Counted from the stretch's first letter, positions 579 to 2,045 are shown. The stretch is DNA of 8,647 nucleotides from a virus (IMGVR_UViG_2703718835_000006:1-8647), one strand, 5' to 3'. Program-made: numbers and translations. Notes: generated from the letters alone by a model not told the origin.

Positions 579-772
579 AACGGCGAAGCATCACCAGATT
601 TTTGATGGTTATAAAAAAGGTTGCTTTAAGATGGGCGTGGTCACCACCACATCATCAAAGTGGAACGCGCTGGGAGCGTACCGCTGCAGAATGGGGCATC
701 TCATTAAGCAGTTGATTACTTCCATTGCGAGTGATTCAATAGATATTGAAAATTCACCCGAAGAGAAAGAAA

Positions 773-1918
773 ATGCAAGGAAATAGAATTGACTTTGTCA
801 ATACTTTGAGAGGATTTGCAGCATTAGCCGTTGTTATTGCTCACTATACTGGTAATTTTTGGTCAATGCGAACAGCAGTAGCAAGTCTTACAAATGCTCC
901 TGAATTACCATCTGAAACATATGCTTGGCCTAGTTATCTTGTATGGCTCCATGCCTTCCCTTTGTTTAACTGGGGGGCTTTCGGCGTTGCTATATTTTTC
1001 ATCATTAGCGGGTTTGTCATTCCACTCTCGCTACAAAAAATGACATTTCACGGTTTTTTATTAAGCAGAATCATTAGAATAATACCAACATATATTATTG
1101 GTTTTACTATAACGCTTACAGCCATATTGATAAGCAGTAAATATTTTTCAGTGGAATGGCCATTTAATAACAAAGAAATATTGATTCACTACATCCCTGG
1201 AATCAGAGACTTGTTGTACTCCAGGAGCATTGATGGAATCATTTGGACACTGGAGATAGAAATGAAGTTTTATCTCATTTGCGCTATATTAATAGCAGTA
1301 TTTCGCAAGCACTCCATAAAAGTTTTCATTACCCCGCTTATTCTTTTTTTGTTTGCTCTCTATATTAACAAGGTTGCTCCTGAATGGATTAACTCCAATA
1401 TATCAGCATTCCATCTTGCCATGGCATACATGTTTTTTTCTCAGTATATTATTTATATGTTTATCGGAACCATGTTTTATTATATGTATTGTGGTTATAT
1501 AAATGCCAACAAGGCTTATCTTGGAATCGGCATATTATTTACTTTATTCTGCATTCTTTGGTGGGCTGGTCCATATTCAGCCAGTATAAATGTCGCCTGG
1601 AGCTATGCATTTGCGCTTTTGGTCTTTGCTTTTGCTTATGCTCACCCAAAATTATTTAAATCCAATAGGTTTTTTGATTTTTTTGCCAACATAAGCTATC
1701 CGCTATATATTATCCACGGGGTAGCTGGGTATGTCGCCCTTCGAATTTTACTTGAAATGGGGTTTAAAGCATGGGTATCTCTCTTAATTGTGACTTTTTC
1801 CATTATATTTTTGTCATGGTTAATACACATCTTGATTGAATCCCCTTCTCAGAGAGCAGGCAAGCGCCTCGTAGCTAAACGAGGTAGGCCATTAAAAAAA
1901 ACAGCGCAACCAACCTAA
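773..1918 (+). CDS. Acyltransferase family 3 integral membrane protein (OafA/Oac-like putative O-acetyltransferase of LPS/O-antigen or another surface glycan), 381 aa
   Basis: N-terminal RIDFVNTLRGFAALAVVIAHY motif (conserved Arg...His), FFIISGF motif, WTLEIEMKFY motif, C-terminal YPLYIIHG, and multiple hydrophobic segments, all typical of acyltransferase_3 proteins. ATG at 773 follows aagagaaaga; the ORF track's alternative start is TTG at 746. The gene body is strongly AT-rich (about one-third GC by eye) against about half GC in the flanking phage genes. Confidence 0.88.
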   Translation: MQGNRIDFVNTLRGFAALAVVIAHYTGNFWSMRTAVASLTNAPELPSETYAWPSYLVWLHAFPLFNWGAFGVAIFFIISGFVIPLSLQKMTFHGFLLSRIIRIIPTYIIGFTITLTAILISSKYFSVEWPFNNKEILIHYIPGIRDLLYSRSIDGIIWTLEIEMKFYLICAILIAVFRKHSIKVFITPLILFLFALYINKVAPEWINSNISAFHLAMAYMFFSQYIIYMFIGTMFYYMYCGYINANKAYLGIGILFTLFCILWWAGPYSASINVAWSYAFALLVFAFAYAHPKLFKSNRFFDFFANISYPLYIIHGVAGYVALRILLEMGFKAWVSLLIVTFSIIFLSWLIHILIESPSQRAGKRLVAKRGRPLKKTAQPT

Positions 1919-1958
1919 TAGATCTTATCAAGTAAAGGCAGCTGCTCTTATTATACAA

Positions 1959-1985
1959 GAGGTGCACTTTCTTCGAGTGCACCTC
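1959..1985. terminator. Candidate bidirectional terminator hairpin between convergent genes
   Basis: Perfect 9-bp stem gaggtgcac (1959-1967) / gtgcacctc (1977-1985) with a 9-nt loop, in the AT-rich gap between the acyltransferase (+) and tfa (-) stops. There is no strong U-tract on either side, so intrinsic-terminator status is uncertain. Confidence 0.35.
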
Positions 1986-2045
1986 CTCTGAAAAACAACT
2001 TTATAAAATTATTTTCATCGCCATATTATTCATTAATCACCCATC

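Follow-up and report, generated by a model that had tools for sequence, protein, structure and literature searches.

An acyltransferase-3 gene in place of the second cassette of an invertible tail-fibre segment in an Escherichia coli prophage

Why should a prophage that switches its tail fibre by DNA inversion keep a membrane-bound acyltransferase where its alternative fibre tip is expected? The question is raised by IMGVR_UViG_2703718835_000006:1-8647, a stretch of viral DNA of 8,647 nucleotides (nt), the whole of which is called the window here. A reading of this DNA from its sequence alone had noticed an AT-rich acyltransferase-3 gene in the position and on the strand that, in Mu, P1, and e14, hold a second cassette made of a fibre tip and its assembly gene, tfa. 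We find that this gene is part of an invertible segment that continues to invert and has moved between the backbones of unrelated phages. The sequence-only reading had recognized the gene as cargo and had missed this location. The overall interpretation that we favor, and consider moderately probable, is that of a working invertible segment in which an acquired acyltransferase-3 gene has replaced the second cassette and likely serves lipopolysaccharide (LPS) acylation. The features of the window on which the argument depends are as follows (aa, amino acids; GC, G+C content).

1..549, minus strand: serine DNA invertase (Gin/Pin/Cin/Hin family), 182 aa, intact (PF00239 and PF02796)
609..634: crossover site A, on the invertase side, TTATAAAAAAGG-TT-GCTTTAAGATGG, core at 621-622; segment identity starts at 621
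621..3078: invertible segment, 2,458 bp from core to core, delimited by identity in other backbones and by reciprocal inversion
623..715, plus strand: stretch of normal GC (0.52), in frame with the N-terminal part of the fibre after inversion
~721 to 2058: low-GC island around the acyltransferase-3 gene
773..1918, plus strand: acyltransferase-3 gene, 381 aa, cargo of the silent arm (PF01757)
1959..1985: GC-rich hairpin of 10 bp where the acyltransferase and tfa genes converge
2046..2438, minus strand: tail-fibre assembly protein (tfa), 130 aa (PF02413, E 8e-22)
2439..3361, minus strand: fibre gene, both parts
2439..3076, minus strand: variable, glycine-rich C-terminal fibre part, inside the segment (PF21722)
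3065..3090: crossover site B, in the fibre gene, read on the minus strand as CTCTCACAAACC-TT-GGTTTAGTAAAT, core at 3077-3078
3079..3361, minus strand: constant N-terminal fibre part, outside the segment, delimited by identity to sister prophages

The invertase can be aligned with Mu Gin (3UJ3) over its full length (residues 1-181, E 1.4e-56) and has Ser9 in the motif YARVST; a distance of 72 nt separates its start codon from the crossover core, compared with 67 nt in Mu. The two crossover sites, at 609-634 and 3065-3090, are both 26 bp long and inverted, with a core that reads TT from outside to inside, and in a direct comparison with gixL and gixR of the Mu genome, site A resembles gix (TTATCCAAAACC-TC-GGTTTACAGGAA). 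An inverted-repeat search of the window alone missed these sites, since the sequence that they share is too short. They were recognized from the inverted repeat that bounds both arms of a sister locus (L002) and from a table of junctions in all fetched loci, in which the same inner half-sites are joined to at least five different outer half-sites. The layout is shared with the Mu G, e14 P, and P1 C segments: a full-length Gin-like invertase starting about 70 nt from one site; 26-bp sites that follow the pattern ..AAACC-NN-GGTTTA.. around a 2-bp core; a fibre whose constant N-terminal part is encoded outside the segment and whose variable part is encoded inside, together with tfa; and the occurrence of both orientations in nature.

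Two complete genomes have P2-like prophages (L004 and L005) that contain the DNA from 621 to 3083 at 99.5% identity, and over at least five junction contexts the identity of the segment ranges from 99.5 to 99.96%. An initial megablast of the whole window came back without these P2-like copies, which were recovered by a distant search of 560-3120. Similarity to them starts at the TT core at 621 and ends at 3083, a few bases past the other core, in the AAACC of the outer half-site. Inversion was seen in two backbones. In L010, flanks 99.8% identical to those of the window enclose the segment in reverse, with the outer halves swapped exactly at TT; the opposite orientation is found in the same backbone in the window, L007, L008, and L011. 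In the P2-like setting, L016 shares a 99.96% identical flank with L004 and L005, and the segment lies in the opposite orientation. Only about 8 bp is common to the sequences around the cores, so the exchange is site-specific and not homologous recombination, and because both orientations occur within two backbones and the exchange falls exactly at the core, the inversion is real. These comparisons, drawn from assemblies of different strains rather than from a single culture, establish the boundaries of the segment, its inversion, and its portability. The invertase and the sites are intact in nearly all copies. The segment is rare, being present in 2 of 5,426 complete E. coli genomes, and its tip/tfa arm has no match among 50,697 sequenced phages. 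In another P2-like context (L012:4310-4470 and L013), no invertase gene separates the segment from the sheath gene that it adjoins, and the outer half-site reads TTCTTTGAAATG; inversion at these loci would need an invertase supplied in trans.

The surrounding backbone shows what the acyltransferase gene has displaced. Positions 1 to ~620 and ~3072 to 8632 are 98-99.8% identical to prophages beside yciI/tonB, and the constant fibre part (3079..3361) is 99.8-100% identical to that of sister prophages with different segments. Parts of the window match 145 of the 5,426 complete E. coli genomes, with identity picking up again at ~3070-3072, and the middle part was found in this backbone in none of the 5,426. 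Most relatives with the same backbone hold a fibre-tip'/tfa' pair in the slot and on the strand of the acyltransferase gene, so that two tfa genes converge; L002, at the yciI locus, is an example. Thus, unlike the Mu, e14, and P1 segments, the window has one tip/tfa cassette and an acyltransferase-3 gene in the other arm, whereas L002 has two cassettes. The acyltransferase gene is absent from the 145 same-backbone genomes and is not part of the backbone, and the sharp drop in GC that had been claimed for it was confirmed (0.355 at 773-1840 versus 0.536 in the backbone at 3413-8647; tfa, 0.458; fibre tip, 0.578). Given this difference in GC and the tip'/tfa' pair found in its place in sister prophages, the gene is foreign to the backbone and was probably acquired horizontally. 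Its low GC is not solely a mark of recent transfer into E. coli, since homologous genes lie 8-23 GC points below their flanks in five of five loci from other taxa (L020, L021, L022, L023, and L027, representing four distinct homologues), which makes low GC a property of the gene family.

The open reading frame (ORF) on the plus strand spans 746-1918. Its likely start is the ATG at 773, giving 381 aa, because homologues begin with MQ or MH there and PGAP calls a 381-aa protein in L004. A 73-aa ORF at 565-786 (plus strand), which some gene finders call, was rejected as probably spurious: it spans site A, overlaps the acyltransferase start, and is lost in other backbones. The 381-aa protein matches PF01757 with E 1.5e-23 and 83.8 bits, where the cut-off is 31, and the match covers profile positions 2-325 of 326; the protein also matches the O-acetyltransferase family PHROG 3333 (E 1.4e-46). 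All 94 residues that are common to at least 95% of 42 homologues are kept in it, among them R13, G14, and H24 in the first helix, F75, F76, S79, and G80, R99/R102, H315, H352, and E356. The first-helix residues, the FFxISG residues, and R99/R102 are invariant in 17 homologues and align with the same motifs of Sf6 Oac. The importance of the Arg...His of the first transmembrane helix, of FFxISG, and of RxxR comes from mutagenesis of Oac and OafA/OafB. Kyte-Doolittle hydropathy peaks fit a polytopic membrane protein with about 10 transmembrane helices, and the AlphaFold2 model (pLDDT 90.3, pTM 0.89) is all-helical with about 10 long helices, in line with the topology expected of the family. These data identify an intact acyltransferase-3 gene, and the identical 381-aa protein is encoded on 13 contigs in at least four backbones. 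A diverged copy in IMG/VR UViG 2924896205 (L026:1084-1851) has an IS1 that interrupts the acyltransferase at a place corresponding to ~1065-1073 of the window.

Two family comparisons made by the sequence-only reading fared differently. Likeness to Oac holds at the level of the family, namely, PF01757 membership, a single domain of ~330-390 aa as in phage acyltransferase-3 O-antigen acetylases, the aligned motifs (including the His of the first helix), low GC, and a position beside a receptor-binding gene. It does not hold as orthology: only the N-terminal 204 aa, or half of the protein, could be matched to Sf6 Oac, at 27% identity (pairwise E 1e-7), and, in contrast to the Sf6 gene, the window's gene lies within an invertible segment, not beside int/att, and has no annotated promoter or terminator. 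The likeness to OafA had to be dropped, since no SGNH domain was found and the 381-aa protein holds a single PF01757 domain. Searches of PDB sequences with the acyltransferase and with the fibre gave nothing useful, and Foldseek found no match to the confident acyltransferase model in the PDB at E <= 0.001.

Beyond E. coli, the nearest relatives are at most 69% identical and come from Pseudomonas, Hydrogenophaga, Aeromonas, and Legionella; a Pseudomonas homologue stands at the end of a polysaccharide cluster of glycosyltransferase and ABC-transporter genes. In Aeromonas veronii (L023:7001-9879), a 65% identical homologue occupies a different cargo hotspot of a P2-like prophage, with the portal gene and gpA on either side and a flagellin gene next to it. 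This layout recalls flagellin-remodelling prophages (PMC13418256).

These homologues also bear on the proposed insertion joint. The basic C-terminal tail of the protein (...SPSQRAGKRLVAKRGRPLKKTAQPT) is as the sequence-only reading had quoted it, and GC does rise to 0.50 at 1841-1918, from 0.355 in the rest of the ORF, which had suggested that the insertion joint lay in the last ~25 codons and that the tail came from phage DNA. However, the tail belongs to the protein family itself: ESPSQRAGKRLVAKRGRPLKK... can be aligned with ESPSQKLGKQLAAKL... of homologues that are similar in length and 45-69% identical, from Pseudomonas, Hydrogenophaga, Aeromonas, Legionella, and Mesorhizobium, with the pattern ESPSQ-x-GK-x-LAAK. 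Since the tail is homologous and GC falls again after the stop codon (0.346 at 1919-2045), the local rise reflects codons for Arg, Ala, Gly, Pro, and Lys in place of codons for Phe, Ile, Leu, and Tyr. The joints themselves fall elsewhere, at ~634 and ~2058, and we regard a joint inside the ORF as almost certainly wrong.

Those joints were located with a sister segment that has the same tip and tfa (88-91% identical) and the same inner half-site A (GCTTTAAGATGA) and that carries a family-9 glycosyltransferase (GT9) gene in the slot and orientation of the acyltransferase. The two segments diverge at ~634, about 12 nt inside site A, and re-converge at ~2058/2059; the second joint falls in the last four codons of tfa, which differ from those of the GT9-bearing segment. 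The GT9 gene (L018:2892-3974 and L024:4109-5191; also in L017) encodes 360 aa at a GC of 0.356, and its product matches PF01075 (E 3e-7) and, weakly, models of LPS heptosyltransferases. Among the 5,426 complete E. coli genomes, 5 have the GT9 segment, which is found in P2-like as well as e14-like backbones and in either orientation. In the window's own backbone, L001:3621-6955 has two intact crossover sites and, in the arm and orientation of the window's gene, an unrelated acyltransferase-3 gene (389 aa, ~25% identical), accompanied by fragments of integrase, DinI-like, and capsid genes. A third acyltransferase-3 gene lies 3' of the fibre gene of L003, on the same strand. The non-fibre cargo seen here inside or beside such segments is always a glycan-modifying enzyme, in a small sample. 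The stronger proposal, in which this fibre tip would never occur without a glycan-modifying gene, was rejected, because tips 59-60% identical have a conventional second cassette; the link between tip and enzyme is thus confined to one subclade. Two tips that are 91-94% identical lie on contigs that end before the content of the slot can be read.

The acyltransferase might nevertheless be a neutral passenger, if illegitimate recombination swapped the second cassette for foreign DNA of no benefit and inversion now only toggles the fibre until the system decays. The rarity of the arrangement, the copy broken by IS1, the frameshift in the window's own fibre gene described below, and a cargo arm in which no promoter or terminator is recognizable speak for this explanation. 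Against it, the protein is identical on its 13 contigs across backbones and keeps 94 of 94 family-conserved residues, and the invertase and sites are intact in nearly all copies. Moreover, the slot has been filled independently by two more glycan-modifying genes, the GT9 gene and the second acyltransferase-3 gene. A passenger therefore appears improbable.

How would such a gene be expressed? In the orientation of the window, the constant fibre part (3361-3079) runs on into the glycine-rich tip and tfa, with the acyltransferase on the antisense side of this operon. After the flip, the constant part enters 623-715 and reads 31 codons to a TGA at 713-715, giving a truncated fibre of 125 aa, a product that is called in L010 at 5566-5943. 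The acyltransferase start then lies 57 nt 3' of the stop of the truncated fibre, on the same strand and in the direction of the tail operon. Inversion here thus toggles a complete and a truncated fibre, rather than fibres A and B as in Mu, e14, and P1, and re-orients the gene for a nonstructural enzyme relative to the tail operon. No homologue of the 623-715 stretch was found, and its origin was not traced. No terminator was predicted in a scan of 621-772, and no sigma-70-like promoter (>=9/12) is correctly placed upstream of the ATG at 773; the single promoter-like match near the gene (746-774) overlaps the start codon. The hairpin at 1959-1985 (dG -18.6 kcal/mol as plus-strand RNA, -25 as minus-strand RNA) was rejected as a terminator, since it has no U-tract on either strand and was not called by the terminator scan; on the plus strand it is followed by an A-run. 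An Rfam search of the window gave no match.

This arrangement allows that the acyltransferase and GT9 genes lack an effective promoter of their own and are transcribed only once inversion has put them behind the promoter of the fibre and tail operon, so that the invertase would act as a phase switch between a complete fibre and surface modification. The 57-nt spacing, the absence of a predicted terminator in between, and the absence of a well-placed promoter all fit. The three independent cargo genes also point away from site A (3 of 3), as the lost tip'/tfa' genes did, and in two strains the acyltransferase and GT9 segments are both flipped. In uninduced E. coli K-12, moreover, Pin-driven inversion of the e14 P segment gives a surface phenotype (PMC12529663). 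On the other hand, late tail operons are normally silent in lysogens, cells induced in the flipped state would yield particles without fibres, three orientations out of three are weak statistics, and weak promoters are common in AT-rich DNA and are missed by a consensus scan. We consider dependence on the flip a possibility, though on the unlikely side.

The two strains are E. coli TUM14664 (L004 and L024) and 102651 (L005). In each, the acyltransferase segment is in a P2-like prophage and the GT9 segment is in an e14-like prophage beside rclABC, both in the fibre-truncated orientation.

In the window, the fibre gene is itself interrupted by a frameshift at a G11 run (2902-2912; C11 on the plus strand), which splits it into ORFs at 2798-3361 and 2439-2888. 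The fibre is intact, at 307 aa, in L008 and L011. Near-identical copies have G12 in L009 and L010, in frame, and G13 in L006, frameshifted, and other fibre alleles read GGGTGGTGGTGG at this position. The run could be a slipped-strand on/off tract in the fibre gene or a homopolymer sequencing error.

The DNA of the window forms one end of a temperate myovirus prophage that is complete and lies at the yciI/tonB locus of E. coli. The element has an integrase, lambdoid regulators, head genes, and a Mu-type contractile tail, with the invertase at its far end, and beyond the fibre gene lie homologues of Mu gp48, gp47, gp46, gp45, and gp44 and of a DNA-circularisation protein. Over the first 3,500 bases, which were compared, the window is 100% identical to L007, an E. 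coli draft contig (GCA_001576295.1 LONV01000007.1).

Taken together, the interpretation named at the outset would run as follows. Positions 621-3078 would be a working tail-fibre segment of the Gin/Pin type, with a glycine-rich fibre tip and its assembly chaperone in one arm; the other arm would have lost its alternative tip/chaperone pair and acquired an intact acyltransferase-3 gene instead. The invertase would act on the two 26-bp sites, recombining them at the TT core of each. As oriented in the window, the fibre would be whole, apart from the strain-specific frameshift, and the acyltransferase antisense; once flipped, the fibre would be cut to ~125 aa and the acyltransferase would lie in sense. 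The enzyme would most likely move an acyl group, probably acetyl, onto a sugar of LPS, in the core or the O-antigen, at the outer face of the inner membrane. Such acylation would alter the surface met by phages, plausibly including those that use the linked fibre tip, and the acyltransferase would be a gene of the lysogenic-conversion type that now travels with the remaining tip and tfa. From sequence, we infer the substrate, the phenotype, and the route of expression, which would be either a weak promoter of the gene's own or read-through after flipping.

LPS is put forward as the most likely target because the sister cargo is a GT9 gene, because fibres from invertible segments bind the LPS core, and because a polysaccharide cluster has a homologue at its end. 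The fibres in question are those of the Mu, P1, and P2 invertible-segment class. Several observations weigh against this interpretation. No close homologue that has been characterized was found: identity to Sf6 Oac reaches only 27%, a tblastn search at 1e-3 did not recover Sf6, the best match among the 50,697 sequenced phages is 25% identical, and NCBIfam offers neither a match nor an equivalog for the acyltransferase. The missing sigma-70-like promoter, the conventional cassettes beside the distant tips, and the IS1-broken copy, by which the prophage can evidently do without the gene in one lineage, count on the same side. Acyltransferase-3 enzymes also acylate enterobacterial common antigen, capsules, periplasmic glucans, and exopolysaccharides.

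The last point opens another explanation, in which the enzyme acts on a glycan other than LPS, such as enterobacterial common antigen, capsule, colanic acid, or osmoregulated periplasmic glucans, with a benefit unrelated to phage receptors, such as serum or immune evasion. PF01757 covers enzymes for all of these substrates, examples being WecH, OpgC, ExoZ, and GumF/G, and no orthologue-level assignment was found in the phage, NCBIfam, and PDB searches. Two features of the locus point back to LPS: the sister cargo belongs to GT9, a family dominated by LPS-core heptosyltransferases, and the gene is linked to a fibre tip of a class known to bind the LPS core. A non-LPS target is thus quite unlikely in our estimation.

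A more ambitious proposal for the segment is that of a portable "key plus lock-changer" cassette, in which tip, chaperone, and glycan enzyme move together between unrelated phages via the crossover sites and the invertase acts as a phase switch between enzyme and fibre. The enzyme would be on, read from the tail-operon side, when the segment is flipped and the fibre is off, and the reverse in the other orientation. We put this forward tentatively and judge it unlikely to hold in full.

Known systems resemble parts of this arrangement. PinQ/PinR-driven inversion of the e14 P segment blocks T2 adsorption, giving a surface phenotype in noninduced cells, with recombinases of different prophages acting in trans (PMC12529663). 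There, as here, a Pin-family invertase flips a prophage fibre segment; the effector in that case is a chimeric fibre protein, StfE2, whereas the re-oriented gene in the window encodes a putative glycan-modifying enzyme. In P2-like phages, the "Z/fun" hotspot, from the fibre genes to the sheath gene, holds swapped fibre and tfa genes and other cargo, often with an invertase and inverted neighbors, according to passages of the iLund4u preprint (10.1101/2024.10.15.618418). The P2-like copies L004, L016, and L018 lie in this hotspot, and the same passages of the preprint contain no mention of glycan-modifying cargo in an invertible segment or of core-to-core transfer. A systematic survey of gene-altering inversions included tail fibres and reported no such cargo, and our search of the literature, which left subscription journals aside, found no description of acyltransferase-3 or GT9 genes inside an invertible fibre segment.

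Receptor masking has been linked to receptor-binding genes before: Llp of T5 adjoins pb5, and Cor adjoins the fibre genes of T1, phi80, and N15. The window shares with these the physical linkage of a potential receptor-masking gene to a receptor-binding gene. Llp and Cor, however, are lipoproteins that block protein receptors, whereas the window has a candidate enzyme acting on a glycan, linked through a shared invertible cassette.

Textbooks present invertible fibre segments as host-range switches and phage acyltransferases as serotype converters; in the window, both are joined in one mobile unit. Even if the acyltransferase gene is a passenger, the locus shows that whole segments pass between Mu-like and P2-like phages by exchange at the crossover sites. 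Should the enzyme modify the receptor that the linked fibre uses, or should flipping govern the enzyme's expression, the segment would be a new route to phase-variable surface chemistry by prophages and a new route by which a receptor-binding module spreads together with a matching exclusion function. If the lock-changer proposal is true, Din invertases would control the LPS chemistry of the host in addition to the host range of the phage.

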